Assembly: GCA_963666985.2 (NCBI GenBank)
Contig: CAXXIA010000002.1
Location: forward strand, 2,496,001-2,560,000
From: Spirochaetia bacterium
Lineage (GTDB): Bacteria > Spirochaetota > Spirochaetia > DSM-2461
Reading direction: 5' to 3'
DNA length: 64,000 bases
Every line of letters begins with the position of its first letter. Positions within the stretch are counted from its first letter, which is position 1. Under the pieces are notes generated by a model. It was not told the DNA's origin and did no database searches. It saw nothing but the letters and a program-made list of their open reading frames with translations. Positions 15,039 through 33,133 of this stretch are shown piece by piece. The position numbers and the translations under genes are program-made.

Positions 15039-15084
15039 GGGGATTTATTTCCCCATAAGGTTGCTAAAGGGGATTTATTTCCCC
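15039..15084. promoter_or_regulatory. Twin enhancer (UAS) sites GGGGATTTATTTCCCC
   Basis: Identical 16-bp near-palindromes at 15039-15054 and 15069-15084, about 170-215 bp upstream of a sigma54 promoter. Confidence 0.7.
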
Positions 15085-15253: not shown

Positions 15254-15269
15254 TGGCACGAGATTTGCA
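15254..15269 (+). promoter_or_regulatory. Sigma54 (-24/-12) promoter
   Basis: TGGCAC-GAGAT-TTGCA matches consensus; 30 bp upstream of the SBP ATG; operon encodes a GAFTGA activator. Confidence 0.85.
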
Positions 15270-15298: not shown

Positions 15299-16264
15299 AT
15301 GAAACGACTTGTATCGGTTCTTTGTTCCGTTGTTCTTTTGTTGGCTCTCGGAATGCCTTTATCGGCTTCCGGTCAGGATGAGAAAGGTGACGGCCAGAAG
15401 ACTTTGGCTGTCTGCCTTCCCGGAAGTGTTGAGTTCTTTTCCGTTCAAAAAAAAGGAATGGATAAAGCCGCCGCTCAATACGGATTGAAACTGATATATT
15501 CCGATGCCGAATGGGATGCCGCCAAACAGTTAAGTCAGGTTGAGAACTTCGTAGCACGAGGCGTTGATGCCGTTATGTTGTGTTCCGCCGATAATCAGGC
15601 ACTTATGCCGGCTGTAAAACTGTGTAATGATTCCGGGATTCCCCTTTTTACATTTACGAATACCTTAGGTGCCGATCCTAACGGACAGGTTGACGGTACG
15701 GTAACGTTCATCGGTATAAATGAAATTTCTCTCGGGCATATGATGGGTAAAATGGCCGAATCCGTATTGGGAAATGAGGCGGCGAATATTGTCTTGATTG
15801 AAGGAAATCCGGGCACGGCTCCGCAAAGAATGAGAACCGAAGGTTTTATGGAAATCGTAGGTAAACATGACAAATGGAATGTCGTTTATCAGCAAGCCAT
15901 TCCCGGCTGGACTAAGGAAGGCGCACTCGCCGCCGTTGAGGCGGCTCTTCAATCCGGAGAAACCATTAATCTGATCAGCTGCCAATGGTATAACGGTGCC
16001 ACAGCCGCGGCACAGGCGATTGAGGAATCCGGACGAACCGAAAAAATCTATGTAACCGGTTTGGAATTCTCCAAAGAACTGATTCCCATGATTCAGGACG
16101 GCAAAGTTGATATGACGTCGAATTATTCCATTGAAGATTCGGGATTCACGGTTATTGAAACCGCCTATAAATACTTTCAGGGTGAAAAAATCCCTTCATT
16201 TATTCCTTTGGAGGCATACATTGTCGATAAAGGGAATGTCGACGGTATAACACCGGAACTTTAG
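15299..16264 (+). CDS. Sugar ABC transporter substrate-binding protein (RbsB-like)
   Basis: GGAGG RBS then ATG at 15299; signal peptide; Peripla_BP-type motifs (QLSQVENFVARGVD, RTEGF). Confidence 0.9.
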   Translation: MKRLVSVLCSVVLLLALGMPLSASGQDEKGDGQKTLAVCLPGSVEFFSVQKKGMDKAAAQYGLKLIYSDAEWDAAKQLSQVENFVARGVDAVMLCSADNQALMPAVKLCNDSGIPLFTFTNTLGADPNGQVDGTVTFIGINEISLGHMMGKMAESVLGNEAANIVLIEGNPGTAPQRMRTEGFMEIVGKHDKWNVVYQQAIPGWTKEGALAAVEAALQSGETINLISCQWYNGATAAAQAIEESGRTEKIYVTGLEFSKELIPMIQDGKVDMTSNYSIEDSGFTVIETAYKYFQGEKIPSFIPLEAYIVDKGNVDGITPEL

Positions 16265-16274
16265 AGATTGCTTT

Positions 16275-17471
16275 ATGAACTGGGGAACTCAGCTCTTTTT
16301 AAGCAAAGTTGAAAAAGAAACATATCCCGTAAGGAAGCTGGAATGGAAGCTCTCAAGGATTTTGGGAAAATCCAATATTGGGAAACTGATATTCTGGAAT
16401 ACTCGGGAAGATGAATATACCGATTCCGTTTTAAGACTTTGCCGGGAATTTGATGTTGAGTGTTGGCTGTGGTTCCCCGTTCTGGCGGATTCCGTCGTCC
16501 CGTCTGAGAATGCCCGTCCTGCGGTGAATCATAGGGGTGAGTATGGAATTCGTCCGCCCGGATCCATTAATAAGCCGGAAAAGGGAGAAGAGAATTTTAC
16601 TTTCTTTTGTCCTTCGGATGAGTCGTTTGAAGAACTGACAATAAAGACTCTTTCGGATTTAGTGGATCGATACGAATATACGGGAGTCTTCCTGGATCGT
16701 ATTCGTTATCCCTCTTTCGCAAACGGTCTGCCGCTGCAATATTCTTGTGTCTGCCCCGCGTGCTGCCGGAAGATGGGAATTGATTCGGAGGCGCTTTATT
16801 CCGAATTGGATTTCATAAAAGGGAAGGATTTCCTCAATCTGTTCCGTATGGGTGCGGAGTGTGAAAAAAGTTCGAACCGATTTCCTGAAGTGAAACGATT
16901 TTTTCGGCACCGGATGGGGCTGATTACCGAGAAAGTGAGGAGATTGAGGGAACCTGTAAAAGCCGTAGGAATGGGGCTTGCGCTTGATCTTTTTACACCG
17001 GCTCTGGCATTTTCGGTCGGCCAGGATTATTCGGCATTAAGCGGGATTGCCGATTGGATAAAGCCGATGACTTACGGCTTGGCCTGGGGACCCGCGGGAA
17101 TCCCGTTGGAACTGGACTGTCTTTATCGGGGTTTGACGCAGAGCTTTCCCGAATTACACAAAGAAGAAGTCATGGCGGCGATTGAGAAACTGATGAATTA
17201 TAAAATCACGCCGTATTGGGAAGGAAGATCGGATACGGGTTTCCCGACTTCCCTGGTTTATAACGAATGGAACACAGCTAGGCAATTCTCCGATAAATGT
17301 CTCTTTTTTCCCGGAATAGAAATGGTTCATAGCGAACTGTTTCGAACGAAGGTTCCGGAATATCGTGTGAAAGAGGCTATCGAACTCTTTGGAAACAGAA
17401 CGGATATTATCGCCTGCTGGAATTGCCTTGATATACCTGAATCTTATTTTGCTTTATTGGATAAGAGCTGA
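16275..17471 (+). CDS. Hypothetical cytoplasmic protein, possibly a glycoside-hydrolase-like TIM barrel
   Basis: GVFLDRIRYP, CVCPAC, GQDY, DWIKPMTY motifs; no signal peptide. Confidence 0.5.
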   Translation: MNWGTQLFLSKVEKETYPVRKLEWKLSRILGKSNIGKLIFWNTREDEYTDSVLRLCREFDVECWLWFPVLADSVVPSENARPAVNHRGEYGIRPPGSINKPEKGEENFTFFCPSDESFEELTIKTLSDLVDRYEYTGVFLDRIRYPSFANGLPLQYSCVCPACCRKMGIDSEALYSELDFIKGKDFLNLFRMGAECEKSSNRFPEVKRFFRHRMGLITEKVRRLREPVKAVGMGLALDLFTPALAFSVGQDYSALSGIADWIKPMTYGLAWGPAGIPLELDCLYRGLTQSFPELHKEEVMAAIEKLMNYKITPYWEGRSDTGFPTSLVYNEWNTARQFSDKCLFFPGIEMVHSELFRTKVPEYRVKEAIELFGNRTDIIACWNCLDIPESYFALLDKS

Positions 17472-17474
17472 TCT

Positions 17475-18965
17475 ATGCCTCAAATACTGCTGTCTCTGGA
17501 CGGAATTAACAAAAGTTTTTCGAATGTTTCTGTTTTGCGGAATATTGATTGGGATGTTCATTATGGGAAGGTTCACGCCCTCTTGGGGGAAAACGGAGCC
17601 GGGAAGTCGACTTTAATTAAGATTATTTCCGGCGTCTATACCGCAAGTTCCGGAACGGTTTCCCTCGAAGGTCGGCAATTGGATTTCACATCTCCTCAAG
17701 ATGCGGTCAAAGCCGGAATCAATGTGATTTATCAGGAAACGAGTCTGATTCCTACATTAAGTGTTCTGGAAAATGTTTTTCTTGGAATTGAACCTAAAAA
17801 ACATAACGTCATCGATTCGGTCGCAATGAGAAAAAAATATGCCGAGGTAAACGCACAGATTGGAATTGATATAAACCCCGAGCAAAAGATTTCGCTTCTC
17901 GGTATCGCCGAGAAAAAAATCGTTGAGATTATGAAGGCTCTTGCAAGAGAAAGCCGGTTGATCATTATGGATGAACCGACAGATTCCCTGTCGGGGAAAG
18001 AAGTCTCTCTCCTTTTTAACGTCATATCGGATTTAAAAAAGCGGGGAATTACCATCATCTATATTACGCATTTCCTTGATGAGGTTTTTCGGATTTCCGA
18101 TAGAATCACCATCCTTAAGGACGGCCGGCTGGTTTCGGATGCCGATGCCGATGAAATGTCGGTTGAACTTATCGTCAAATCCATGGTCGGCGATGTAATG
18201 AAATTGGAAAAAGCTCCGGATTATCCCTCCAAATCATCCGAACCGCGATTATCGGTTAAGAACTTGGTTCCCGATGATGATGTTCCGTCAAGCAGTTTCT
18301 GTCTCTATCCGGGAGAAGTGCTTGGAATCACCGGTGTGGTCGGCGCGGGGAAATCGGAATTGGGGAGAGCCTTGTTCGGGGCGGCAAAAAAGAAATCCGG
18401 GGAAATAATCTTGGACGGAAAAATCTGTCGGATCAATTCTCCCAAGGATGCGGTGAGAGCCGGTATCGGAATGACGACCGAGGATCGAAAAGATACGGGA
18501 TTGCTCCTGGATGATTCTATTCTCCATAACCTTACCTTAGCGTCCCTGCAAAAACATATGCGGAAAGGTTTTATTTCAACGGGACTGGAATTGAAGCTCT
18601 ATAAAGGGACAAAAGAAAAATTGGGAATAAAGTGCACCGATTCCGATCAGCATCTGCGTTTCCTCAGCGGCGGGAATCAGCAAAAGGTCGTTATCGGAAA
18701 GTGGCTGGCGGCCGATCCGGATATCCTGATTATGGATGAGCCGACCAGAGGAATCGATATCGGCGCGAAGCAAGCGGTTTATCAAATTATCAGAGCGTTG
18801 GCCGCGGCCGGGAAGTCGGTAATTTTCATATCATCCGAGGTTCCCGGGGTTCATGCTCTTTGTCATCGGATTCTGGTGATGGGCAGAGGTTCTATCCGGA
18901 AGGAATTCTTTCCTGAAGATCCCATTGAAGCCGTTATGAAAGCTATGCTGGAAGGAGAAGTTTAA
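17475..18965 (+). CDS. Sugar ABC transporter ATP-binding protein (RbsA-like, tandem NBD)
   Basis: GENGAGKST, MDEPT, LSGGNQQK. Confidence 0.95.
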   Translation: MPQILLSLDGINKSFSNVSVLRNIDWDVHYGKVHALLGENGAGKSTLIKIISGVYTASSGTVSLEGRQLDFTSPQDAVKAGINVIYQETSLIPTLSVLENVFLGIEPKKHNVIDSVAMRKKYAEVNAQIGIDINPEQKISLLGIAEKKIVEIMKALARESRLIIMDEPTDSLSGKEVSLLFNVISDLKKRGITIIYITHFLDEVFRISDRITILKDGRLVSDADADEMSVELIVKSMVGDVMKLEKAPDYPSKSSEPRLSVKNLVPDDDVPSSSFCLYPGEVLGITGVVGAGKSELGRALFGAAKKKSGEIILDGKICRINSPKDAVRAGIGMTTEDRKDTGLLLDDSILHNLTLASLQKHMRKGFISTGLELKLYKGTKEKLGIKCTDSDQHLRFLSGGNQQKVVIGKWLAADPDILIMDEPTRGIDIGAKQAVYQIIRALAAAGKSVIFISSEVPGVHALCHRILVMGRGSIRKEFFPEDPIEAVMKAMLEGEV

Positions 18966-18968
18966 CGG

Positions 18969-19928
18969 ATGAATCTTACGGATAAATTTAATCAAAAGAA
19001 CGTGAGGCAAATAACTCAGAAATACGGAATTATGATTCTTTTTTCTATATTAAGCATCATTATTTCGATAGTTACTCCCAATTTCCTTAATGCTCAGAAC
19101 ATCATAAACATCCTTCGGCAAAGTTCGATAATCGGCGTTATGGCTATAGGAACCACCTTCGTTATTATCGGCGGAGGCTTTGATATTTCCGTCGGCAGCG
19201 TGTTGGCGCTTTCGGCCGCCATGGCGCTGGGATTGCAGGCTCAGATGCATTGGCTGGCAAGTACGGTTATTGTTCTTCTTGTCGGTATCGGCATTGGGTT
19301 GGCCAACGGTTTTTTATCCGCGAAGATCGGCATCGTACCGATTATCGCCACGCTGGGAACTCAGACCGTTGTCCGCGGTCTTACCTATATGTATACCGGC
19401 GGATATCCTGTTACCGGCGATTCGCAGAGTTTTCAGTTTATCGGTTCCGGATATATCGGGAAGATTCCCTTCCCGATCATTCTTTTCCTGACCATGGTCG
19501 CCCTTTGGCAGTTTGTTTTAAGTAAAACTCCCCTCGGACGTTACAGCTGTGCAATCGGAGGGAATAAAGAATCCACGAGACTCTCCGGTGTTAATGTCGA
19601 TTTTTACCAGATTATGACTTTTGTTATCGGCGGAGGGATGGCGGCTCTTTCGGGAATTATCTATGCGGCCAGACTCAGTTCCGCCACGCCTTTGGCCGGT
19701 CAGGGATATGATCTAGATGCTATTGCCTCAACGGTTATCGGCGGAACAAGTGTATCAGGAGGGCAGGGAAGCATCGTCGGCACGCTGATCGGTGTGCTTC
19801 TTATGACTATTCTAAACAATATGTTTAATCTTATGGGTGTTCAAGTGTATGTTCAGTATTTGGTAAAGGGTATGATTATTCTTCTTGTTGTGGGAATTGA
19901 TTCTTATTCGAAGAAGCAGAAAAACTAG
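18969..19928 (+). CDS. Sugar ABC transporter permease (RbsC-like)
   Basis: DISVGS, AIGGNKES, VIGGTS motifs; multiple TM helices. Confidence 0.95.
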   Translation: MNLTDKFNQKNVRQITQKYGIMILFSILSIIISIVTPNFLNAQNIINILRQSSIIGVMAIGTTFVIIGGGFDISVGSVLALSAAMALGLQAQMHWLASTVIVLLVGIGIGLANGFLSAKIGIVPIIATLGTQTVVRGLTYMYTGGYPVTGDSQSFQFIGSGYIGKIPFPIILFLTMVALWQFVLSKTPLGRYSCAIGGNKESTRLSGVNVDFYQIMTFVIGGGMAALSGIIYAARLSSATPLAGQGYDLDAIASTVIGGTSVSGGQGSIVGTLIGVLLMTILNNMFNLMGVQVYVQYLVKGMIILLVVGIDSYSKKQKN

Positions 19929-19979: not shown

Positions 19980-21299
19980 ATGGGCCGAAGCAGAATCCTG
20001 ATTATTGATGATGAATTGGAATTCTGCCTCTCAATGAAGGATTTGTTTGAGGATTCAGGCTATTCCTGCATCTACTCGACCGATCCTGAGAAGGCGGCCG
20101 ATCTTCTGCGAAAAGAAAAAATCGATCTGGTTCTTCTTGATTACAAGATGCCTCGTGTAAATGGGATTGAACTTCTCAGCTGTATCAGAGAAGAGAATTC
20201 CGAACTGCCGATAATTCTCGTCTCCGGATATATCGATATTGAGACAACGGTTCAAGCCATGCGGATTGGGGCTCTGAACGTCTTAAGGAAACCGGTGCGC
20301 TTTGCTCAGCTGGAAGAAGAAATCGCGCGAATCCTAAATACGTCCGGTGGCGCCTTCAGATCGGATTCTTCGATTATCAGCGGCGATAAAAAGGTCCTTG
20401 AGATTTTTGGTTCCATAAAGAAGGTTGCGGAAACAAACGCTCCGGTGTTAATTACCGGAGAGAGCGGAACCGGGAAAGAATTGATCGCCGAGGAAATCCA
20501 TCGGCTGAGCGGTCGTACTCAGCATCCTTTTGTTAAACTCAATTGTGCGGCTTTGCCCGAGTCTTTATTGGAAAGTGAGCTTTTTGGTCATAAGAAAGGC
20601 GCGTTTACCGGTGCCCTGGAAAATCGTTCCGGCCGCTTCATCGCCGCACATCAAGGGAGCCTCTTTCTTGATGAAATTGGTGATATGAACCTGCTGACTC
20701 AGGCAAAACTATTAAGAGTTTTACAAGATGGAAAAGTTACGGTTCTCGGATCTGATAAGCCTCAAAATGTTGATGTTCGAATTATTGCCGCTACCAATAA
20801 AAATCTTTTTTCCATGATGAAGGAAGGTCTCTTTCGAGAAGATTTATTTTATAGGCTTTCGGTTGTCCATTATGATCTCCCCCCTTTACGTGAAAGATCC
20901 GGAGATATTCTTCTTTTAAGCAGTTTTTTTCTAGAAATGGCTTGTTATGAATACGGTCGGAAAATAAATGGTTTTGATGCCGAGGTGGAAAAGATCCTCC
21001 TTTTTCATCCTTGGCCCGGGAATATTAGGGAATTAAAAAACTGTATTCAGCGCGCGGTGATTTTCTGTGAGAATACCCTGATTTCCGCTGGAGATCTTCC
21101 CGAACAATATAAGAGGGTTGGAAAACCGGGCTGGACGGACGGATACGAAAAAGCGATTGACAATATTAATAGAGAGTTGATTGAAGAGGCTTTAAGAAAA
21201 AGCGGCGGGAAGAAAGCTCTTGCCGCTCAATTGCTGAAAATTGACAGGAAGACTCTCTATAACAAAATAAAAAAGTTAAACATTCAGGGATTTGAGTGA
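19980..21299 (+). CDS. Sigma54-dependent response regulator (NtrC/AtoC family: REC-AAA+-Fis HTH)
   Basis: IIDDE, LLDYKMP, GESGTGKE, GAFTGA, WPGNIREL, C-terminal HTH. Confidence 0.95.
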   Translation: MGRSRILIIDDELEFCLSMKDLFEDSGYSCIYSTDPEKAADLLRKEKIDLVLLDYKMPRVNGIELLSCIREENSELPIILVSGYIDIETTVQAMRIGALNVLRKPVRFAQLEEEIARILNTSGGAFRSDSSIISGDKKVLEIFGSIKKVAETNAPVLITGESGTGKELIAEEIHRLSGRTQHPFVKLNCAALPESLLESELFGHKKGAFTGALENRSGRFIAAHQGSLFLDEIGDMNLLTQAKLLRVLQDGKVTVLGSDKPQNVDVRIIAATNKNLFSMMKEGLFREDLFYRLSVVHYDLPPLRERSGDILLLSSFFLEMACYEYGRKINGFDAEVEKILLFHPWPGNIRELKNCIQRAVIFCENTLISAGDLPEQYKRVGKPGWTDGYEKAIDNINRELIEEALRKSGGKKALAAQLLKIDRKTLYNKIKKLNIQGFE

Positions 21300-23122
21300 A
21301 CAGCCGGAGATTGCTTCAAGTCAAAGGCGTCTCCTATTCGTACGGGATAAAACAGGCCCTTTTTGGAGTTGGTTTTGATCTGCTTCCGGGCGAAATCCAT
21401 GCCTTGGTAGGCGATCATCGAGCGGGAAAATCCACTTTAATCCGGATTATTTGCGGAGCGCTTCGATGCCGCAAAGGGGAAATTATCCTTCCAGAGGGCA
21501 AATTCGCCGGGCTGTCTCCACGGAAAGCACGCCAACTGGGAATTGGTGCGGTGTTCCAGGAGGAGATGCTTGTTCCTTCATTAAGTACAATTGATAACGT
21601 TTTCTCCGGCCGTTTCGCGGTCTATCCCGGCGGAATTATCCGATGGCGTCGGCATATAGATGAATTTACTCGTTTTTGCCGAAAGTTGGATTTGGATTTT
21701 GATTTTACGAAACCCGTTGGTCAATTGGACAAAGTTAATCAGCATCTTGTTGAGTTTTTAAGGGCGATTTATTTCGATCCTTCCATACTCATTCTGGATG
21801 AAATATCCACTCGATTTACTCCGAGAGAAATGGATTTCATTTATCGGATTATTTTGGATATGAAGAAAAAGGGAAAAGGCATTATTTATATTTCCCATGA
21901 TATGGATGAAGTCATGGAATTTGCAGATAGGGTGACCATCCTGAGAAACGGCCGTTGCAGAAAGACTGAAAATATCCGCAATCTGGATAAAATGCAGCTT
22001 TATTATATGACCTATTCCCATGAGTTATCCAGAAAGGAACTTCGTCAGGCAAATTATGAACTCTACAATTTTAAACGATACAATGAAGCCATTATCCGGA
22101 ACATCCCGGTTGGTGTTGTTATTCTGGATAAGGACAATGGAATCTATCAGGTAAACCAAGCCGCTGAAAATTTGCTGTCTCCTTTTTCCGCCGATGAGCT
22201 TACTCTTGAAAAAATTTTCTCACGAATCGATAAAAGTTCGGTTCATAAAATTCTTTTGGCGATCCGGTCAAAGAAGCGAATGCATTTGGAAAATCTCCCC
22301 TTCGGCGATGAACATATTATTGATTTTTTTTGTTCTCCATTTACGGGTGACGCTGGGGAACTCAGCGGAACAATTTTACTGATTAACAATAAAACGGAAG
22401 AGCATAACGCAAAGGAATATATGAGAAGAACGGAACAGATTTCCTCTATTGCGGAACTGGCCGCCGGCGTGGCGCATGAAATTAATAACCCTCTTAATAT
22501 CATTTTGAATTACATGGATCTGATTACCCTTGAAACCCAGAAGGAATCATCCATTATTCGGCTGAAGAAGATTGAAAAGGAAATCCAGAGAATCTCGGAA
22601 ATTACCGGGAGTCTGCTTTCGTTCTCCAAAGTGAATAATGTGGAATTAGTCGAGTGTGATTTAAGGCAGGCACTTAAAGAAGCGGTACTTCTCCTGAAAT
22701 ATCGTATAGAGAAGAAAAAAGTTGTTTTCTCAATGGAGATTCCGGATGAACCTGTTGTTATCACAGGGAATTTAAATAAACTCGAGCAAGTATTTATCAA
22801 CTTGCTCATAAACAGTCTGGATGCTCTTGAAGCTGGCGGAAAGATTCGGGCCTGTATCCGTTATGAAAATAACAATGTATATGCGGCTGTGTCCGACAAT
22901 GGACCGGGGATTGAACATTCTATTGTCTCAAAAATTTTTGATCCCTTTTTCACTACTAAAATTGAAGATAAGAATTCCGGCCTCGGCTTAACCGTCTCGA
23001 TGCACATCATTATGGAACATAATGGGCTTCTTGAATGCCATAGTGAAGGCGGATGGACGACATTCGGAATTCGGCTTGCCGCCTGTTCTTCGAAAACGTA
23101 TCGAAAAGAAATTATCGATTGA
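21296..23122 (+). CDS. Hybrid histidine kinase: sugar-ABC ATPase domain + PAS + HisKA + HATPase_c
   Basis: GDHRAGKST, VFQE, ILILDE, IYISH; then IIRNIPVGVVILD...VNQAAE; AHEINNPL; QVFINLLINS, DNGPGI, FDPFFTTK, GLGL. No TM helix. Confidence 0.9.
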   Translation: MNSRRLLQVKGVSYSYGIKQALFGVGFDLLPGEIHALVGDHRAGKSTLIRIICGALRCRKGEIILPEGKFAGLSPRKARQLGIGAVFQEEMLVPSLSTIDNVFSGRFAVYPGGIIRWRRHIDEFTRFCRKLDLDFDFTKPVGQLDKVNQHLVEFLRAIYFDPSILILDEISTRFTPREMDFIYRIILDMKKKGKGIIYISHDMDEVMEFADRVTILRNGRCRKTENIRNLDKMQLYYMTYSHELSRKELRQANYELYNFKRYNEAIIRNIPVGVVILDKDNGIYQVNQAAENLLSPFSADELTLEKIFSRIDKSSVHKILLAIRSKKRMHLENLPFGDEHIIDFFCSPFTGDAGELSGTILLINNKTEEHNAKEYMRRTEQISSIAELAAGVAHEINNPLNIILNYMDLITLETQKESSIIRLKKIEKEIQRISEITGSLLSFSKVNNVELVECDLRQALKEAVLLLKYRIEKKKVVFSMEIPDEPVVITGNLNKLEQVFINLLINSLDALEAGGKIRACIRYENNNVYAAVSDNGPGIEHSIVSKIFDPFFTTKIEDKNSGLGLTVSMHIIMEHNGLLECHSEGGWTTFGIRLAACSSKTYRKEIID

Positions 23123-23301
23123 TGAGGTCTTGGGGTGTCGGTGAGTATTTCTCGAAATCCGGCGGTTTTTCTCCTCGGCCGTCGGCATAAACTGTCTCCG
23201 GTGAGATGTTTTCCCCGTAATTCTCTTTCCGAATAAAAGGGGCTGTCTCATAAGAGGCGGCCCTTTTTCATGTCTGGAAGAATTCCCTTCTGAATTCAAG
23301 G

Positions 23302-24882
23302 GTGGTAGAATTCTTCATGGACACTAAAAAGAAGGCTACATTCAAAGATTACGAAATCAGCCAACAGATGCTCCTGCCTCCAAGTCTCGATGAACTGCTT
23401 CCCGCAAACCATATATCCCGCACAATCAACAACTTCATCGACACGATGGATACCAGTGAGCTCTTCAACGCCTATCCGGGAGGCGGTGCCAGCAGCTACC
23501 ACCCGGTGATGATGCTGAAGGTTCTGGTGTTGGCCTACTCGAAACAGCTGTATTCCTGTCGTCAAATCGCAGACGCTCTTCGTGAGCAGATATGCTTCAT
23601 GTGGATCAGTGGTAATAACCGTCCTGATTTCCACACGATAAACAGATTTCGTAACGGTCCATTGAAGAAGAGCATCGAGAAAATCTTTGCCTCAATGGCC
23701 AACAGCCTCATCGAGAGCGGACATGTCCAGATGGAGAACTACTTTCTCGACGGCACAAAAATCGAATCAGCAGCTAACAAATACACATGGGTATGGGGCC
23801 GGGCGACAGACAAGTTCCAGAAGCGCCTGGCCGGCAATATGGATGAGCTTTTCGAATACATCGACCGCATCAATGAAGAAGAGGATGAGAAGTACGGCGA
23901 CCATGACCTTCCCCATGTGGATCCTCAAGGCAGGCCGATGTCGGAGATTCTCGAAGATGCGGTATCCAAGCTCAATGAAGAGCTGCGCAAGGATCGGGAG
24001 GAGCGAGAAAAGAAGGAGATTCAACGGAGATTGAATACCGCTAGCAAGGACTATCTCCCTCGTGCCAAAAAGTATGAGCAGCAGAAGAGAATCCTCGGCG
24101 ACCGAAATAGTTACTCGAAAACAGACTATGATGCGACTTTCATGCGGATGAAAGAAGACTATATGAAAAATGGTCAGCTCAAGCCCGGGTACAACATCCA
24201 AATGGGTACTGAGAACCAGTTCATCCTCGGATATAGCATCCACCAGAGTCCCGGTGACTCCCTGACATTGCCGCTACATATGGAGAAACTGAAAAAGAAT
24301 CTGAAACGCTATCCGAAAAGAATCATTGCTGATTCAGGATATGGTAGTGAAGAGAACTACCAGTGGTGTGAGGATCATGGTGTCGAGAAGTACATCAAGT
24401 TCAGCTACTTCCACAGGGAGCGGAAACGGAAGTTCAAGAAGCAGATTCATATGAAAGAGAACTGGGACTATCGTGCCTCTGATGATACATACCGGTGCCC
24501 CAAGGGTCGCCGATTCAAACACGAGGAGACCAGAATCTCGAAAACAGGTTCAGGATTTCCGACCACTGAAAAAAGGTATACAGGCCCTGGATGCCAAAGG
24601 TGTTCTCTCCGAATCCGGTGCTGCAAATACGGAGGCAAAGAGCGCATCCTGACGGTTCGTCCAAACCTGGAACGGCATAAGTCTGAAGTGCGCAAGTTGC
24701 TGACTTCAGAGGAAGGACTGAGAATGCGCTCTCTCAGGCCGATTGAAGTCGAATCTGTATTCGGAGATATCAAGACGAATATGGGATTTCGGAGATTCCG
24801 AACCAGGGGATTGAAGATGGTCAGTACTGAATGGGGACTGTTGAGTATGGCTCATAACATGAGGAAGCTACAGAAACGATAA
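23302..24882 (+). CDS. IS1182-family transposase
   Basis: YHPVMMLKV, PDFHTINRFR, DGTKIES, SKTDYDATFM, ADSGY, VESVFGDIK. Confidence 0.95.
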   Translation: MVEFFMDTKKKATFKDYEISQQMLLPPSLDELLPANHISRTINNFIDTMDTSELFNAYPGGGASSYHPVMMLKVLVLAYSKQLYSCRQIADALREQICFMWISGNNRPDFHTINRFRNGPLKKSIEKIFASMANSLIESGHVQMENYFLDGTKIESAANKYTWVWGRATDKFQKRLAGNMDELFEYIDRINEEEDEKYGDHDLPHVDPQGRPMSEILEDAVSKLNEELRKDREEREKKEIQRRLNTASKDYLPRAKKYEQQKRILGDRNSYSKTDYDATFMRMKEDYMKNGQLKPGYNIQMGTENQFILGYSIHQSPGDSLTLPLHMEKLKKNLKRYPKRIIADSGYGSEENYQWCEDHGVEKYIKFSYFHRERKRKFKKQIHMKENWDYRASDDTYRCPKGRRFKHEETRISKTGSGFPTTEKRYTGPGCQRCSLRIRCCKYGGKERILTVRPNLERHKSEVRKLLTSEEGLRMRSLRPIEVESVFGDIKTNMGFRRFRTRGLKMVSTEWGLLSMAHNMRKLQKR

Positions 24883-24927
24883 GGGGATGGGAGGGAACCT
24901 CCCGTCTTCGGAGGTCAACCAAATTTT

Positions 24928-24961
24928 AAAAGGGGCTGTCTCAAACTAATGAGACAGCCCC
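24928..24961. terminator. Hairpin at the IS right end, likely terminating the convergent GRE gene
   Basis: GGGGCTGTCTCA-loop-TGAGACAGCCCC with a T-tract on the minus strand. Confidence 0.55.
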
Positions 24962-24985: not shown

Positions 24986-27403
24986 TCAGTTCTTCACTTC
25001 GAATTCCATCCGTGCGATGACATCATTCTGGAGTTCCCGATTCAGGGGTGTAAAGAACGCGCTGTATCCGGCGATTCGAACCATGAGGTCCCGGTATTCT
25101 TCCGGTTTCTCTTGAGCCTTTCGAAGAATCTCATCACCCAGAACGTTGAACTGAATATGGTATTGGTTGTTCCTAAAATGAGTTTTTACCAGGGATAGAG
25201 CACGATTTCGTCCCGCTTCCGTAGACAGGGAATCGGATGTGAGTCTCATGTTGAAGAGGGAACCTTTCTGGAACCAGATGGCCGGCAGTTTCCCTTCGGA
25301 GTTGATCAGCGCCGTTGGACCGTTTTGCTCCATGCCGTTGGAAGGTGAAACACCGTTGTTCATCGCTTCTCCGGCCTTGCGGCCGTTCGGGAGGGCGCCG
25401 ACGGATTTCCCGAAGGCGATATTGCCCGTTACCGAGCTCTGACTGAGCGCGAATGTTCCGGGGATGGGGCCTTTGCCGTAACGGGAACTTTTAAACTCCT
25501 TGAAATAGGTCGATCCCAAATAGTCGTCGATGGCGACGGTCCATCGATCCGCGTAATCGTCGTCGTTCCCGAATTTGGGAACTTTGTTGATCAGAGTTTG
25601 CCGGATTTCAAATCCCGTGGGAGAGGTCTCCTGATCTTCAAAGTTCGTTTTAAGCGCATGCATGAGCTGCCGCGGGGTGAAGATTTTTTTATCAAAGAGA
25701 ACATAATCTATTGCGGCGATGGAGTCTCCCGCGGTAACCGCTCCGGCTGTGGGACCTCCGTCGGCGGTGTAGCGTGCGCCGCCTTCAACCAGTGATTTAC
25801 CCCGTTCGATGCAGTCGTGTACCAGGGAAGAACGGAAAGCGTTTTGGTCGTGCAGGATGTGCATTTCATCACTGATATGCTCCACAATAACCTGCAGCTC
25901 CATATAGAAGTGCAGCTGTTTTTTATAAGCCGCCAGAATTGCATCCGCGCTTTTAAAAGTTTCCAGAGTTCCGTCTCCGGGTAGCAGTGTTTGTCCGGTG
26001 GCCGGATCGGTACCGTTGTTCAGCGTGATTTCGAACACTTTTCCAAGGTTCAGCCAGGAGCCTTTGGCCGCGAAGTCCCATTTCCCGGGTACCGAAGCTT
26101 CTATGCATCCTACGGGCGCCCAAGTGTAGAGGTCTTCGTCGGCGACTCCCATGTTTTTCAGAATGCGCATTACTCCCGCATCATTGTAAAGGGCGGGCTG
26201 ACCGCCTTTATGCGCCTGTATCGTCCGAAGCACCTCGTCCATGAACGCATCGTCGGTTCCTTCAAACCACTTCATTGAAACCGAAGGTTTGGTAAGGCCC
26301 ATCTGTGCGGTGGCGTCCAGAATGATTCGCGTCAAATCGTTCACCGCGTTTTTTCCGTCCGCGGTTTGGCCTCCGACGGCCAGATTCTCCGCAAGGTGAT
26401 AACCCGGAAAAAACTCGCTGTCGGACCATGAGCGAAGCTTGTTGATTTCATTGCACTTGATGAAAAACGATTCCACCAGTTCCAGGGCGAATTCCCGCGT
26501 TATGGCGCCGGAAGCAAGGTCGGCTTCCAAAAAGGGCCACAAGTATTGGTCGAATCGTCCCAGAGAAACAGCATGACCGTTGGTTTCAATTTGGATGGCC
26601 AAATGAACAAACCAGACGGTTTGAATCGCTTCCCAGAAGTTCCGGGCCGGTTCCGCCGGAACCCTGCGGCAGTTTTCGGCCATTTTTTTCAGTTCCGCCT
26701 TACGGGCCGGATCCGCGGCTTTTTCGGATTCTTCGACGAGTTTTTCGGCGAAACGCCCGGCGAAGTTGATAACCGCTTCATTGGAGCGAATAACCGCTTC
26801 AAGAAACCAGGATTGATTGATGGCTCCCGGTTCGGTCATATCGAGGTTCTTCAGGCGTTCTTTCGCTTGAGCGATAACGCCGTTCAGTCCTGCGCGGAGT
26901 ACCATTTCGTGGTCCGGCAGAACATTGCCCAATCCGGCGGCCGCGCACCAGGTATCGTCGATGGCGTTCAGTTCCCAGGCTTTTCGCGCCGCTTCCGGCA
27001 ATTGATCCCACACGCAGCTGATAAGAGATTTGTTTTCCCAATATGCGATGGTTTTTAGAACACGTGACTTGGTTTCTTCCGTATAGCTGAATTGATCACA
27101 GGGCCTTTCATGAAAATGGTAGGGATTTCCTTCGAATTCCTCAACGATCCACCGGGTTGAGTATTCCGGAAATACGGGTGCCGCATGAACGGAACTTGCC
27201 TGATTCCCTACCAGCAGTTCTCCGTCCCTGACAAGAATGGACATCCTGTCGAGAACATCATAAAAGGCGTCGGCCCGTCTTTTAACAATGGGGCGGCCTT
27301 CACTTTTTTTCATTGATTCGGTAAAGATTTCTGCCCGTTCCGGACATATCGCCGGAAAACTCTCGAATAGTCCGTTACGTAATTTTTGGATTCGATCGGT
27401 CAT
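24986..27403 (-). CDS. Glycyl radical enzyme (PFL2/eliminase class), substrate unknown
   Basis: Cys loop PVGCIE, Gly loop VRIAGYS, SLGRFDQYL; GAGGAG RBS before ATG 27403. Confidence 0.95.
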   Translation of the reverse strand: MTDRIQKLRNGLFESFPAICPERAEIFTESMKKSEGRPIVKRRADAFYDVLDRMSILVRDGELLVGNQASSVHAAPVFPEYSTRWIVEEFEGNPYHFHERPCDQFSYTEETKSRVLKTIAYWENKSLISCVWDQLPEAARKAWELNAIDDTWCAAAGLGNVLPDHEMVLRAGLNGVIAQAKERLKNLDMTEPGAINQSWFLEAVIRSNEAVINFAGRFAEKLVEESEKAADPARKAELKKMAENCRRVPAEPARNFWEAIQTVWFVHLAIQIETNGHAVSLGRFDQYLWPFLEADLASGAITREFALELVESFFIKCNEINKLRSWSDSEFFPGYHLAENLAVGGQTADGKNAVNDLTRIILDATAQMGLTKPSVSMKWFEGTDDAFMDEVLRTIQAHKGGQPALYNDAGVMRILKNMGVADEDLYTWAPVGCIEASVPGKWDFAAKGSWLNLGKVFEITLNNGTDPATGQTLLPGDGTLETFKSADAILAAYKKQLHFYMELQVIVEHISDEMHILHDQNAFRSSLVHDCIERGKSLVEGGARYTADGGPTAGAVTAGDSIAAIDYVLFDKKIFTPRQLMHALKTNFEDQETSPTGFEIRQTLINKVPKFGNDDDYADRWTVAIDDYLGSTYFKEFKSSRYGKGPIPGTFALSQSSVTGNIAFGKSVGALPNGRKAGEAMNNGVSPSNGMEQNGPTALINSEGKLPAIWFQKGSLFNMRLTSDSLSTEAGRNRALSLVKTHFRNNQYHIQFNVLGDEILRKAQEKPEEYRDLMVRIAGYSAFFTPLNRELQNDVIARMEFEVKN

Positions 27404-27429
27404 ATGTTTGTTCTCCTCAAGAGAATGAG

Positions 27430-27443
27430 TGAAAACGCTTTCA
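27430..27443. promoter_or_regulatory. LacI-type operator TGAAAACGCTTTCA
   Basis: Palindrome with central CG; related copies at 27599 and 29749. Confidence 0.7.
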
Positions 27444-27445
27444 CT

Positions 27446-27463
27446 ATGTTCATAACATAACAT
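27446..27463. promoter_or_regulatory. DeoR/GlpR-type operator ATGTT-N8-AACAT
   Basis: Related copies at 29668, 39812, 40047. Confidence 0.7.
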
Positions 27464-27598
27464 GCTTTTCTAAATATCGCAAATTGAATATTTCCGGCTT
27501 TCCGGCGATGAAAAAGACTCATCGAAGTGTTTTTACGGAAATAGGAAGAAACGGTCCCGAATTGACAGGTGTTCTTCGGGCCTTTACTATGAATAAAT

Positions 27599-27612
27599 TG
27601 AAATCGGTTTCA
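27599..27612. promoter_or_regulatory. LacI-type operator TGAAATCGGTTTCA
   Basis: Downstream of a TTGACA...TACTAT promoter, just before the lacI-family gene. Confidence 0.65.
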
Positions 27613-27625
27613 CCAAAAGGTCTGC

Positions 27626-28639
27626 ATGGGGCGCTATACCATTAATGAAATTGCTGAAATCTGCCATACCTCACCGGCTACGGTGTCGCGGGTTCTTAAC
27701 AATCCTCATCTGGTTGCCGAGCCCTTAAGAAAAAGAATCCGGAAAACGATGGAAGAGGTTGGGTACAGGCCGAATCCGTTCGCTTCACGCTTAAGCTCCC
27801 GCTCCGGCTGGGGATTGGCCCTTTTCGTCTTCGATATTCTGAATCCCTTTTTCGCTCTTATCGTGAGGAAGATCGGCCATTTGGCCATGGAACAGGGGAT
27901 TCCCCTGACCATCTGCGATACCGAGAATAACGAGGAAAAGGAAAAGATGTTCCTCGATTACCTTCTGGATAATCAGATAGGCGGCATTATTTTCGGTGAA
28001 GGTATTTCCGCGGGAACCATTGAACGGGCCATGGATTCCACCGAGACGGTTCTGATCGACAGGCATTTAAAGGAAGGTTTGGTTTCCGAAGTCACCAGCG
28101 ACAACTATCGCGGCGCCTGCCAGGCGGTTGAATATCTCTATCAATTGAGTCATCGCCGAATCGGTTTTATCGGCGGGCCCGAGAGCTGGGCTTCGGTTGA
28201 GGAGCGGTTTCGCGGGTATCGGGACACTCTGGAACGCAACGGAATACCCTACAATCCCGCCCTTATGTTCCGGGGAGATCTCCGTTTTGAGTCGGGGATC
28301 GGGGCGCTGGAGTATTTTCTGACCCTTCCCGAATGGCCGACGGCAATCTTCAGCGCCAACGATCAGATGGCGTTCGGCGTTCTTACCAAGGCTAAGGCCA
28401 TGGGGATTGATGTTCCCGGCGATATATCGCTGATCGGTTTCGACGATATTCCTCTCTACAGCTTGTATTCGACGAGGCTTACGGCGATACAGCAGGACAT
28501 CGACGCTCTCTGCGAGAATGCTTTTCGAATTATGATGGAAAAATTGAACGGAACGCCGGAAGAGGGCCCTAAGGATAGAGTCGTCGTACCGACGCGTTTA
28601 AAAACGGGCGAAACCTGCGGGAAATGCTCCCGACCGTGA
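27626..28639 (+). CDS. LacI-family transcriptional regulator
   Basis: TINEIAEICHTSPATVSRVLN HTH, YRPN, NDQMAFG, GFDD. Confidence 0.95.
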   Translation: MGRYTINEIAEICHTSPATVSRVLNNPHLVAEPLRKRIRKTMEEVGYRPNPFASRLSSRSGWGLALFVFDILNPFFALIVRKIGHLAMEQGIPLTICDTENNEEKEKMFLDYLLDNQIGGIIFGEGISAGTIERAMDSTETVLIDRHLKEGLVSEVTSDNYRGACQAVEYLYQLSHRRIGFIGGPESWASVEERFRGYRDTLERNGIPYNPALMFRGDLRFESGIGALEYFLTLPEWPTAIFSANDQMAFGVLTKAKAMGIDVPGDISLIGFDDIPLYSLYSTRLTAIQQDIDALCENAFRIMMEKLNGTPEEGPKDRVVVPTRLKTGETCGKCSRP

Positions 28640-29556
28640 ATATTAATGCAATTCTTTTTGATATAGAACGTTATGCCCTTGAAGACGGTCCGGGTATCAG
28701 AAGCGTCGTGTTCTTTAAAGGGTGTAATCTGCGCTGTCTTTGGTGTCAGAATCCTGAATCGCAAGACGGGAATCCTCAAATACTGTATTCACGGAACGAA
28801 TGCATCGCCTGCGGCCGATGTGCCGAAATATGTCCTGTTGATGCAATCCGGGATGTTCCGGATTTCGGCTATGTTACGGATCATTCGGTTTGTACTGTCT
28901 GCGGCAAATGCGTGGATGCCTGCTATACGGGAGCAAGGAAAATCGTCGGTCGAAGCATGGATATCGATTCGATCATGGAAGAAATACTTAAAGACAGGGA
29001 TTTCTACAGGGAATCCGGCGGCGGAGTCACTTTTTCCGGCGGCGAGCCCCTTTTGCAGGATGCGGTTGTATCCGCGCTGGCCCTGCGGTGCCGGGAACAA
29101 GGAATTCATACGGCGCTTGAAACCGCCGGTTTCGTTTCGCGTTCCGTTTTGGATAAGATTGTGCCCTTAATAGATCTTATTTATTTCGATTTGAAGCACA
29201 TCGACTCCGGTGAACACCGGAAATTTACCGGCGTTCCCATAGAGCCGATCCTCGAAAACTTGAAAGCGGTCTCGGCTTCGGCGGCCCGCCTTATCGTTCG
29301 GATTCCTCTTATTCCGCATGTGAATGATGATAATAAAACAATAAGCCGGATGTTTGAATTTCTGAAGAAGGAATGCGCGGGGCCCGAAGTGGAAATCCTG
29401 CCTTTCCATCGCCTCGGTTTGGGGAAGTACGAAGGATTGGGGCGGAGTTATTCAATGGCCGCAACCTTGAATCTGGGAAAGGCCGATTGTGAACCGTTTG
29501 CGGAGCTGGGAAGAGCGATGGGACTCGTGGTTCGAACCGGAGCCGGCGGGGTTTGA
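28636..29556 (+). CDS. Glycyl-radical enzyme activating protein with 2x[4Fe-4S] insert
   Basis: DGPGIRSVVFFKGCNLRCLWC, CIACGRCAEICP, CTVCGKCVDAC, SGGEP; GTG overlaps the lacI stop. Confidence 0.95.
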   Translation: MNINAILFDIERYALEDGPGIRSVVFFKGCNLRCLWCQNPESQDGNPQILYSRNECIACGRCAEICPVDAIRDVPDFGYVTDHSVCTVCGKCVDACYTGARKIVGRSMDIDSIMEEILKDRDFYRESGGGVTFSGGEPLLQDAVVSALALRCREQGIHTALETAGFVSRSVLDKIVPLIDLIYFDLKHIDSGEHRKFTGVPIEPILENLKAVSASAARLIVRIPLIPHVNDDNKTISRMFEFLKKECAGPEVEILPFHRLGLGKYEGLGRSYSMAATLNLGKADCEPFAELGRAMGLVVRTGAGGV

Positions 29557-29667
29557 ACGGCCCCGATGATATCCGGATGAAAGAGTGTTTCTCGGGCTCC
29601 GTCCGTATCACAAGACCGGGAAACGAACCGCCTTCATGACCCAAAATTGTTATCAATTAACGATTAG

Positions 29668-29685
29668 ATGTGAACAAACGAACAT
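29668..29685. promoter_or_regulatory. DeoR/GlpR-type operator (ATGTG-N8-AACAT)
   Basis: One mismatch to the shared palindrome; upstream of TTGACA(29711)...TACAAT promoter. Confidence 0.6.
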
Positions 29686-29748
29686 TTTGCAATGAAACAT
29701 AACATTTTTCTTGACATCCGCCCGGGAGTCGTTACAATTTTATCAAAC

Positions 29749-29762
29749 TGAAAGCGGTTTCA
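29749..29762. promoter_or_regulatory. LacI-type operator TGAAAGCGGTTTCA
   Basis: Extended palindrome ACTGAAAGCGGTTTCAGT just downstream of the -10 of the ABC operon. Confidence 0.7.
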
Positions 29763-29814
29763 GTGACAATCAGCACATTGCTGTCACTGAAGACACAAAC
29801 CGTAAGGAGGATTT

Positions 29815-30765
29815 ATGTTGAAAAAGATTCTCGTCATCGCCTTGATCCTGATGGTTCCCGCCGGTTTTCTTTTCGCCAACGGCGGGGGAGAGAAATCGGC
29901 GTCCAATCTGATGGTGATTATTACTCCGGATAAGGACAATACGTTCTTTACCGCCGAGGCCGATGCCGCGAAAGCCATGGCCGAATCTCTCGGTTATCAG
30001 ACGCTTCTTGTTGTTCATGGCGACGATCCCAACAAAGAGAGTGAGATTATCGACACCGCGATCTCGCAGAAAGCCGCCGCGATTATCATCGACATCGCCA
30101 ATGCCGATGCCTCTCCCAACAACTTGCGCCGGGCCGATGAAGCGGGTATCCCCGTATTCTGCATGGATCGTGAAATCAATGCGGCCGGCATCGCCAAGGC
30201 TCAGCTGATCTCCGACAACTTCCAGGGCGCTCAGCTCGGCGGCGAGTATTTCGTCGAACTGATGGGCGAAAAGGGCGACTGGGTTGAGCTCGTCGGTAAA
30301 GAATCCGATACCAATGCCGGTGTTCGTTCCAAGGGATTCCACTCCATTATCGATCAGTATCCCGATATGGTGATGGTTGCCCGGGAAACCGCCAACTGGA
30401 GCCAGACCGAAGCTTATTCCGATGTTGAGTCCATTCTTCAGGCCAACCCCACGGTGAAGGGCATCATTTGCGGCAACGACACAATGGCTCTTGGTGCGAT
30501 GGCCGCCGCCGAAGCCGCGGGCCGCGGTGACATCGTCGTTATGGGATTCGACGGAAACGACAATGTTCTGGATTCCATCATGCAGGGAAAGATCAAAGGC
30601 ACCGTTATGCAGCCGAACGCCCTGAACGCCGAGATGGCCGTACAGCTGGCCGATAAGTACATCAAATCCGGTTCCACGGGTATGGATCAGGAAAAGATTC
30701 TTAACGGATGTTTCCTTATTACGAGTAAAGAAGCCAAACAATGGCGAGGATTCAAGAAGCTGTAA
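29815..30765 (+). CDS. Sugar/polyol ABC transporter substrate-binding protein
   Basis: Signal peptide; DNTFF, DREI, SDNFQGA, GKESDTNAGVRSKGF, ANWSQTEA; resembles SBPs of DUF2291-associated importers. Confidence 0.9.
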   Translation: MLKKILVIALILMVPAGFLFANGGGEKSASNLMVIITPDKDNTFFTAEADAAKAMAESLGYQTLLVVHGDDPNKESEIIDTAISQKAAAIIIDIANADASPNNLRRADEAGIPVFCMDREINAAGIAKAQLISDNFQGAQLGGEYFVELMGEKGDWVELVGKESDTNAGVRSKGFHSIIDQYPDMVMVARETANWSQTEAYSDVESILQANPTVKGIICGNDTMALGAMAAAEAAGRGDIVVMGFDGNDNVLDSIMQGKIKGTVMQPNALNAEMAVQLADKYIKSGSTGMDQEKILNGCFLITSKEAKQWRGFKKL

Positions 30766-30863
30766 GGCGCTGCTGAGAAAAGCATCGTTATGATCATTGA
30801 GGGAGCTCCGCCTCCTCGGGGCGGGCTCCCTTTCCATACCCGGGAAATCCCCGGAGGACAATA

Positions 30864-31550
30864 ATGCGAGAAAACAAAAATTCACCGATTCTGCTGACGG
30901 CGTTAATATTCTGCGTTGCACTGATTTCTTCGTGCACTGTCGTCAAGATCGAAGATAAGGAATCAGGCGAAGGGGACGAATACTCCACATGGACCAAGAC
31001 GGGGACGGGTTTCGTCGCGGTTGATTATGTCGAGTCGGTCTGGGAAGAGAAAATGATCCCGATTTTCGAGGAAGAAGCCGTGGACTACGAAATGCTCATG
31101 AGCGCTCTTGCCGAAGATCGTCAGGGTAAATCGAAAGAGTACGGACTTCTCCGGCAGACCGGAGAACCTTTTTATGTGTTTAAAGTCCGAGGCAAAGCGA
31201 AGGTTCTGGAGTTCGACGACAGTTCCCGAAACGGCGTAATCAGGGTGGATCATGAGCCTGAGGACGGTATCGCGGATGCCGTTATTCAGGTCGGACCGGT
31301 TCTGAAGGGATCGGCATTAAGGGATTCGGTGGAGTTCATTCGGTTTACCGATGTGGGTAATCAGCTCCAGTTTGCCGATCTGGCGAAAGAGATGAACATG
31401 CGGATGAAGGCCGATTCTCTTGATCCTCTCGATTTGACCGCCCTTAAAGGAAAAACAATCGAGTATCTGGGAGCTTTCCGTCTGGAAACGGAATCACCGC
31501 TGGAAGATGTGGTTATAACACCGCTGGTTTTGAACGTGGTGGAAGACTGA
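30864..31550 (+). CDS. DUF2291 family lipoprotein
   Basis: Lipobox SSCTVVK; IQVGPVLKGSALRD...FTDVGNQLQFA. Confidence 0.85.
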   Translation: MRENKNSPILLTALIFCVALISSCTVVKIEDKESGEGDEYSTWTKTGTGFVAVDYVESVWEEKMIPIFEEEAVDYEMLMSALAEDRQGKSKEYGLLRQTGEPFYVFKVRGKAKVLEFDDSSRNGVIRVDHEPEDGIADAVIQVGPVLKGSALRDSVEFIRFTDVGNQLQFADLAKEMNMRMKADSLDPLDLTALKGKTIEYLGAFRLETESPLEDVVITPLVLNVVED

Positions 31551-31559
31551 GGATGCGAT

Positions 31560-33113: not shown

Positions 33114-33133
33114 AGGGAGGAAGTAAGACAACT

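Follow-up and report, generated by a model that had tools for sequence, protein, structure and literature searches.

A 608-residue histidine kinase whose input domain is a whole ABC-transporter nucleotide-binding domain (NBD) is encoded at 21296-23122 (+) of the 64,000-nucleotide stretch of DNA analysed here (the window; Spirochaetia bacterium, contig CAXXIA010000002.1, positions 2,496,001 to 2,560,000), where it lies behind the genes of a CUT2-type sugar importer and an NtrC-type regulator. This sensor-kinase architecture is real, widespread and apparently uncharacterised; the importer operon is well supported as its target, and the manner in which the protein would act as a receptor is a proposal. 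We think that the soluble kinase likely activates the CUT2 operon through the NtrC-type regulator and a sigma54 promoter, and that it likely senses sugar by binding the importer permease in place of the motor, as a partner that binds ATP and does not transport. Taken as a whole, this reading seems to us about evenly balanced between right and wrong.

As an initial annotation made from the sequence alone had described, the kinase gene is a single uninterrupted open reading frame (ORF) with a GTG start inside the end of the NtrC-type gene (19980-21299), the stop of which it overlaps, and the motifs quoted there (GDHRAGKST, VFQE, ILILDE, ISH, LDKVNQ and AHEINNPL) are all found in the encoded protein. 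A contig from a second run covers 20526-23262 with zero differences, the sample being the same and the agreement hence not independent. Pfam recognises ABC_tran (amino acids (aa) 24-170, E 1e-15), HisKA (386-447) and HATPase_c (493-594), and a PAS domain at 264-358 scores just below the Pfam cut-off. The AlphaFold model (pLDDT 82.9) contains, in this order, an ABC NBD, a helix, the PAS domain, the dimerisation and phosphotransfer domain (DHp) and the catalytic domain (CA), with a pTM of 0.44 that makes their relative placement uncertain; among the fold matches shown for the model, PAS kinases and ABC ATPases appear separately, with no solved fusion. The input domain (aa 6-240; 21311-22015, +) is a whole NBD of the type that forms the N-terminal half (NBD1) of CUT2 ATPases, remodelled to carry H41 in Walker A, the D-loop DEISTRF and no LSGGQ, and is closed by a family-specific conserved C-terminal helix that ends with Y240. 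The helical linker and the PAS domain follow (22016-22390, +), the distance from Y240 to P271 being 32 aa in 95 of 111 family members, and then the DHp and catalytic domains with the N, G1, F and G2 boxes (22394-23083, +; H394 codon at 22475-22477).

The kinase half is well preserved throughout the family, in that H394, N502, N506, D534, G536, G538, G562 and G564 are invariant in 111/111 kinases. An H-box His, the N, G1, F and G2 boxes and an adjacent regulator with a phospho-acceptor Asp, which are the hallmarks of class I (HisKA) kinases, are all present; by every sequence feature checked, the protein is a class I histidine kinase, with predicted kinase activity. It does not belong to the AtoS equivalog of NCBIfam, which it matches over aa 255-596 only and with 220 bits against a cut-off of 646. 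The absence of a transmembrane (TM) helix, likewise noted in the initial annotation, is borne out because the highest 19-residue hydropathy is only 1.26, as compared with 2.24 in the permease. Among the family kinases the maximum reaches 1.9 in 3 of 111, and the two TM helices that mark Bce-type intramembrane kinases were not found.

The initial annotation had allowed that the fusion might be a chimera unique to this assembly, and this is now excluded: the 608-aa fusion is real and widespread. Among the matches listed, all 120 homologues show this set of three Pfam domains, with 40-65% identity and 96-100% length coverage, and there are orthologues that are 60-65% identical over the whole length. 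A search with the 76-residue junction of NBD, linker and PAS returned 156 clusters at 50% identity; among the 150 listed, 110 are at least 580 aa long, and both halves are present in 110/110 of these. The 40 shorter clusters are fragments, except that three of them are probably ordinary ATPases, and only the 110 were kept. The kinase was detected in 14 of 401 genomes of the phylum when three candidates were scored per genome, in 5 of 20 genomes of one class, and in 30 of 61 genomes of closer relatives, with 1-5 copies each; none was seen in 201 genomes of Desulfobacterota, a scan that scored six candidates per genome and had no positive control. The source names of the homologues are mostly Spirochaetes, with single ones from Thaumasiovibrio subtropicus, Candidatus Vecturithrix, a Spartobacteria metagenome-assembled genome (MAG) and a Bacteroidales MAG. 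In automatic annotation, many homologues are named AtoS or ABC transporter protein, and the domain pair is recorded there.

Two Spirochaetota clusters with the kinase architecture were found in the ESM Atlas, in which a search with the NBD alone gave ordinary ABC clusters only. The Atlas also contains clusters of 166 and 64 members, mostly from Actinomycetota, with the order ABC_tran-GAF-HisKA and a length of about 850 aa (score 0.84); these proteins, no more than a lead, possibly represent an independent fusion of an NBD with a kinase. A weak search for longer fused forms gave one unrelated match among 904 candidates. No plasmid record covered 80% of the kinase, and the plasmid matches to the junction were weak; H8, the one with usable annotation, was rejected as an ordinary importer ATPase.

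Over aa 4-254 of the kinase, the best family matches are the N-terminal NBDs of CUT2 ATPases (RbsA, YtfR, XylG, AraG and LsrA), and NBD1 of the neighbouring ATPase shares 32% identity with the input domain. As controls for the 111 kinase NBDs, the N-terminal NBDs of 33 tandem CUT2 ATPases were taken from the same genomes. The ATP-binding core is intact in 102 of the 111 kinase domains, with K45 kept in 106, S/T46 in 105, Q88 in 91, D168 in 106 and E169 in 102, and 60 members, including the window kinase, retain all six catalytic residues. The degenerate signature (LDKVNQ) that the initial annotation had pointed out is present but inherited, since SGG is absent from all 33 controls as well as from all 111 kinase NBDs. 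Other positions separate the two sets. The Walker A Asn (N41) is kept in 5/111 kinase domains versus 33/33 controls and is replaced by His in 81/111 (0/33 controls); the D-loop Pro (P170) is found in 4/111 versus 32/33; a Lys or Arg at position 173 is a new feature (88/111 versus 0/33); and the H-loop His (H201), present in all 33 controls and in the window kinase, is kept in 67 kinase NBDs and lost in 44. In one subgroup (L168, 8989-10785; L172, 10760-12058), Walker A reads GEHFCGKSS, the H-loop His is absent and several motifs are lost. Set against CUT2 motor ATPases of the RbsA type, therefore, the window kinase has the Walker A Lys-Ser/Thr, the Q-loop Gln and the Walker B Asp-Glu; it has one NBD in place of two tandem NBDs with LSGGNQQ in the second, and in its family the Asn of GENGAGKST and the DEP of the D-loop are rare and the H-loop His is not invariant.

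Position 3 of Walker A and the D-loop presumably contact each other across the NBD dimer, and, if so, the dimer face has been rebuilt in the kinases. Since a kinase dimer would bring together two NBDs that lack both LSGGQ and a conserved D-loop Asp, ATP binding with little hydrolysis would be expected from the general ABC mechanism, and the ABC domain of the kinase probably serves as a switch that binds ATP rather than as a motor. RbsA-type ATPases themselves have one degenerate site, according to PMC11466899. More conserved in the kinase NBDs than in the transporters are H35, P162, D204, T224, E225, D231, K232 and Y240; the newly conserved positions group in the sequence at the H-loop helix and the C-terminal helix, ahead of the 32-residue linker, and the C-terminal helix together with the linker of fixed length looks like a dedicated output path. 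The Walker residues and the linker length persist across members that are only 23-45% identical; the kinase NBD evolves faster than the transporter NBD1, and variability is highest in the PAS domain. A quick tree was computed for 89 domains, using every second locus of a set of 48. Its 24 kinase NBDs are set off by one branch (SH-aLRT 97), separately from NBD1 (93) and NBD2 (100). The tree does not place them within NBD1 and is compatible with one old fusion event.

The kinase gene is consistently found in the company of importers of the type from which its NBD derives. We examined 74 loci, 2 metagenomic and 72 from genomes, the window locus included. (A pattern scan of metagenome contigs gave 2 full-length members among 80 loci, the other 78 matching mainly the kinase half and not being used; a similar scan of genome contigs gave one unrelated kinase only.) A sigma54 regulator stands directly ahead of the kinase in 70 of the 74, three of the remaining four ending at a contig edge within 32 bases and the fourth being L105. 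In 66/74 loci, a gene for a CUT2 ATPase or permease is found no more than 5 kb from the kinase, and both lie within that distance in 49 of the 50 loci that have at least 5 kb on both flanks, so that the absence of ABC permeases near the homologues, which the initial annotation had named as fatal to its proposal, can be set aside. For comparison, such linkage is seen in 8.6% of random genome blocks and for 2 of 18 other sigma54 activators of the window genome, which encodes 116 permeases of the other importer type (PF00528) versus 65 of the CUT2 type (PF02653). The sole uncut exception is L114, where a LacI gene and araBDA are present with no importer inside the 20 kb examined; in the other seven loci without a CUT2 gene within 5 kb, a flank is cut short. 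The loci are kin and not independent, and they represent 18 permease clades at 50% identity.

The commonest arrangement is an importer divergent from the regulator; sometimes the importer is downstream, and in the window it is upstream in the same direction. Up to five paralogous kinases occur per genome, mostly each beside its own importer, and this therefore favours a substrate-specific input over a general gauge of ATP. There are also signs of re-pairing. The kinase of L129 is nearer to that of L149, at a permease identity of 39%, than the kinases of L104 and L106 are to that of L153, at a permease identity of 70-71%; the permease of L168 shares 75% identity with the window permease, although the two kinases share 36% and the genes are ordered differently. 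At L115 (3922-10200) and L101 (5703-7623), family kinases lie beside importers with single-NBD ATPases, and L115 has two consecutive sets of binding protein, permease and ATPase. At L165 (12430-17101), the family kinase stands beside a nucleoside-type importer (BmpA/Nup-like by the appearance of its ORFs) with two permeases, and the substrates of the kinase-linked importers may, accordingly, extend beyond sugars.

The window operon itself opens with a sigma54 (-24/-12) promoter at 15254-15269 (+) that matches the full consensus and is one of three sites scoring 12/12 in the 4.86-Mb genome, which encodes RpoN. Two identical GGGGA-N6-TCCCC palindromes at 15039-15054 and 15069-15084, 215 and 185 bases upstream of the promoter, are candidate enhancer sites. 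The pattern, which was derived from these sites, has 2 matches in the window versus 0.38 expected, and similar sites occur at that distance in the closest loci, L125 and L126; an enhancer motif common to the family was not found, the GGGA..TCCC dyad being confined to a few clades. The first gene (15299-16264, +; ATG 15299 preceded by the ribosome site GGAGGA) encodes a periplasmic sugar-binding protein (RbsB-like, CUT2; Peripla_BP_4), for which RbsB is the best NCBIfam model, below its cut-off, and whose relatives in the PDB are sugar- or polyol-binding proteins. It is followed by a gene for a 398-aa glycoside-hydrolase-like TIM barrel (16275-17471, +), a tandem two-NBD CUT2 importer ATPase with an intact GENGAGKST in NBD1 and LSGGNQQ in NBD2 (17475-18965, +) and the operon's only permease (RbsC-like CUT2; BPD_transp_2; 18969-19928, +), for which no solved relative was found in the PDB by sequence. 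The complete set of binding protein, ATPase and permease described in the initial annotation is thus present, with the correction that the hydrolase-like gene separates the binding-protein and ATPase genes. The TIM-barrel protein had zero Pfam or NCBIfam matches; its model (pLDDT 72) matches the glycoside hydrolase domain of PgaB (E 1.5e-10, TM-score 0.54) and Cwp19, and a gene with the conserved motif GVFLDR occupies the same place in L125, L126 and L168.

The NtrC-type sigma54 activator (19980-21299, +) has a receiver with D54, an AAA+ domain with GAFTGA and a Fis helix-turn-helix (HTH). With a GAFTGA-type loop, an AAA+ Walker A, an HTH, RpoN in the genome and a -24/-12 promoter in the operon, it has the features of a sigma54 enhancer-binding protein, and D10, D11, D54 and K104 are kept in 48/48 of the regulators, in which a GAFTGA-type loop is present. 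Sigma54 control of the importer, which the initial annotation had proposed, is backed by sites at other loci as well: at 51 of 65 loci, the window locus included, the first recognised importer gene has a site scoring at least 10/12 in the 450 bases ahead of it, as compared with 0.8% in shuffles, 0/65 on the opposite strand and 3/32 for other CUT2 operons of the window genome, and three of the misses (L109-L111) carry 11-12/12 sites one gene further upstream. We consider it a strong inference from these sequences that the kinase/regulator pair activates the importer operon. With kinase genes beside the transporter that they would regulate (49/50 loci) and the sigma54 sites (51/65), the kinase resembles transporter-coupled two-component systems, a likeness of gene context only. 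Two other CUT2-type operons of the window genome (G000:C2:2580996 and G000:C2:1041048) have sigma54 sites and an activator within 4 kb and no NBD kinase. Scans of the window for sigma70-like sites and terminators stayed at chance level.

How might the kinase learn of the sugar? According to the reading that we prefer, the kinase dimer would present its two NBDs to both coupling helices of the permease homodimer. The sugar-loaded binding protein would dock on the permease and shift it, the kinase NBDs would close on ATP without turnover, and the conserved C-terminal helix and 32-residue linker would relay the movement through the PAS domain to the DHp domain, whereupon His394 would phosphorylate Asp54 of the regulator. 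The activator would then bind the palindromes at 15039-15084 and open the promoter at 15254, and more binding protein, hydrolase, ATPase and permease would be made, most of the permease keeping its ordinary ATPase and transporting. In broader terms, the importer would be a receptor in which the binding protein and permease homodimer recruit either the motor ATPase or a kinase dimer, so that alternating access is read as His phosphorylation, a device reused across at least 18 spirochaete permease clades and perhaps invented separately in Actinomycetota and Chloroflexota; this broader claim we regard as tentative, falling somewhat short of an even chance.

Docking is favoured by the several paralogues per genome and by the linkage, which is restricted to the importer type from which the NBD came, despite PF00528 permeases being commoner, and persists across 18 permease clades and apparent re-pairing. 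In addition, G54, L92, P94, L96 and F103 of the hydrophobic groove are retained, and a single permease gene is found in 16/18 linked clades versus 15/31 unlinked operons (p 0.006, post hoc; four of nine two-hit loci were taken as single, having one long or one split gene by the ORF calls). Several observations weigh against it. The groove positions, presumed by analogy with MalK to face the permease, are less constrained than the remainder of the domain (z -2.5), K50, Y56, E89, L104 and G105 being eroded. In mirror-tree correlation with the permease, the NBD reaches 0.41, the regulator AAA domain 0.40 and the kinase core 0.33, versus 0.68-0.73 for the importer ATPase. Cognate and non-cognate pairs did not differ clearly in similarity at the groove (p 0.12), one of 11 windows (aa 82-107) reaching an uncorrected p of 0.03, and linked and unlinked permeases or ATPases showed no shared signature, the best p being equalled in 3 and in 11 out of 30 shuffles. 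The permeases of two clades are heterodimeric, and L114 has no importer inside the 20 kb examined. No locus without an ATPase was seen among the 64 with permease and ATPase in view; L123 was considered as one and rejected when an antisense ORF proved to have masked its ATPase. Finally, the permease, binding-protein and kinase genes all appear to be under the very sigma54 promoter that they would activate, and a source of basal expression is therefore needed, for which none was found. Of what the initial annotation proposed, then, the fusion, the CUT2 linkage and the sigma54 control stand, whereas docking in place of the ATPase is a proposal: the presumed groove is more weakly conserved than would be expected, though its hydrophobic residues are kept, co-variation with the permease is no greater for the NBD than for the regulator AAA domain, and the ATPase is kept at 64/64 loci.

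One could, alternatively, envision the kinase as a free cytoplasmic sensor whose NBD dimer or PAS domain binds ATP/ADP, the imported sugar or a sugar phosphate, the linkage then reflecting regulon and gene origin. The relaxed groove and the weak co-evolution with the permease agree with this, as do the variability of the PAS domain, which would be expected of a specificity pocket, the kinase of L114 beside catabolic genes only, and the new conserved polar patch of H35, D204, E225, D231, K232 and Y240, a possible ligand or dimer site; yet linkage to CUT2 importers alone goes unexplained when other importer types are more numerous, and several paralogues per genome would share one ATP pool. We think this unlikely, if worth serious attention. 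In a different scenario, the kinase would monitor flux through the intact importer, with one of its NBDs pairing with NBD2 of the ATPase (the LSGGNQQ donor), or displacing NBD1 beside it, in a manner comparable to BceAB-BceS or MalK-MalT. The domain is, after all, of the NBD1 type, the half with the working Walker A site, the six catalytic residues are retained in a majority of members, and the ATPase is kept at every locus. Against this, the Walker A Asn that would face NBD2 has become His in most kinases and the H-loop His is absent in 44, the partial correlation with NBD1 is none and that with NBD2 weak (0.25), and L101 and L115 have single-NBD ATPases; we judge it quite improbable. Least of all do we expect the NBD to be a relic of the old fusion, a mere scaffold for dimerisation or membrane targeting with the signal entering at the PAS domain. 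Its faster evolution than transporter NBD1 and the motifs lost in L168 and L172 would suit such a relic, but Walker A Lys, Walker B Asp and Glu, and linker length have been held in 95 to 106 of 111 members at 23-45% identity.

Beyond the kinase, the window contains a multi-copy insertion sequence (23239-24961; 16-nt terminal inverted repeats) that begins 116 bases past the kinase stop, with a transposase gene at 23302-24882 (DUF772, DDE_Tnp_1_6) and a read depth about 10-20 times that of its flanks. In the region 24986-34198, a PFL-like glycyl-radical enzyme (825 aa) is encoded divergently from a LacI gene and a probable radical-SAM activase. Next comes a second CUT2 importer, which includes a DUF2291 lipoprotein, and the set would make up an uncharacterised anaerobic pathway for a sugar or polyol.

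In the transporter-sensing systems known so far, the coupling relies on adaptors or on contacts within the membrane, and how transporter motion reaches the kinase is poorly resolved. The candidate coupling element described here is soluble, is modelled with confidence and forms part of the kinase polypeptide, and it is amenable to point mutants (Lys45, His41, Tyr240 and linker length). Because many members of this large family are automatically annotated as AtoS or ABC transporter protein, a sizeable sugar-sensing network of spirochaetes is currently invisible. Even under the alternative readings, an ABC NBD would be novel as an input domain of kinases; should docking hold true, the kinases would be categorically new, a class of transmembrane receptor built from transporter parts, and a sugar biosensor could in principle be made by connecting a reporter to any pair of CUT2 permease and binding protein.

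In the literature searched, outside which most subscription journals and supplementary domain tables lay, we found no description of an ABC NBD as the input of a histidine kinase. In BceAB-BceS and Pst-PhoU-PhoR, an ABC transporter is coupled to a kinase through separate proteins (PMC6978683 and PMC8534201). BceAB-BceS/BceR of Bacillus subtilis is similar in that an ABC transporter senses for a kinase without an outside sensor domain and the system controls its own transporter genes; BceS, however, which has two TM helices, is a protein of its own next to a complete transporter, whereas the window kinase is soluble, has its own NBD and would drive a sigma54 activator for a sugar importer. PstSCAB-PhoU-PhoR/PhoB of E. 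coli likewise relays the importer state to a PAS-containing kinase that regulates the importer, but, according to PMC6978683, the relay is a separate adaptor, PhoU, that touches the ATPase PstB, and PhoR has no NBD; the window operon has no PhoU-like gene. The SLC5/STAC kinases CbrA, CrbS and RpuS (PMC9100948) and Kuenenia Amt5-HK (PMC8534201) share a transporter-derived domain that is covalently the kinase input, and RpuS/R also switches on a separate working transporter (PMC9100948). In these kinases, the fused membrane domain binds the ligand, whereas the window kinase has no fused membrane transporter domain and contains only the cytoplasmic motor domain, its membrane part presumably borrowed in trans. 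The N-terminal NBDs of CUT2 ATPases are alike by family match and by a signature that is already degenerate (PMC11466899). They differ in that the kinase has no second NBD, has His for the Walker A Asn, has replaced the PT of the D-loop, has often lost the H-loop His and has gained a C-terminal helix. AtoS/AtoC, ZraS/ZraR and NtrB/NtrC have the same PAS-DHp-CA core and a sigma54 partner of receiver, AAA+ and HTH domains, the input domain of AtoS being unrelated to the kinase NBD. In MalK-MalT of E. coli, an ABC NBD reports the state of the transporter to a transcription activator; MalK, however, is a working motor, and MalT is not a two-component partner. KdpD is a membrane protein. It resembles the window kinase in having an N-terminal domain with Walker motifs and in acting on its own transporter, but this domain is, according to PMC11018627, an atypical serine kinase and no ABC NBD.

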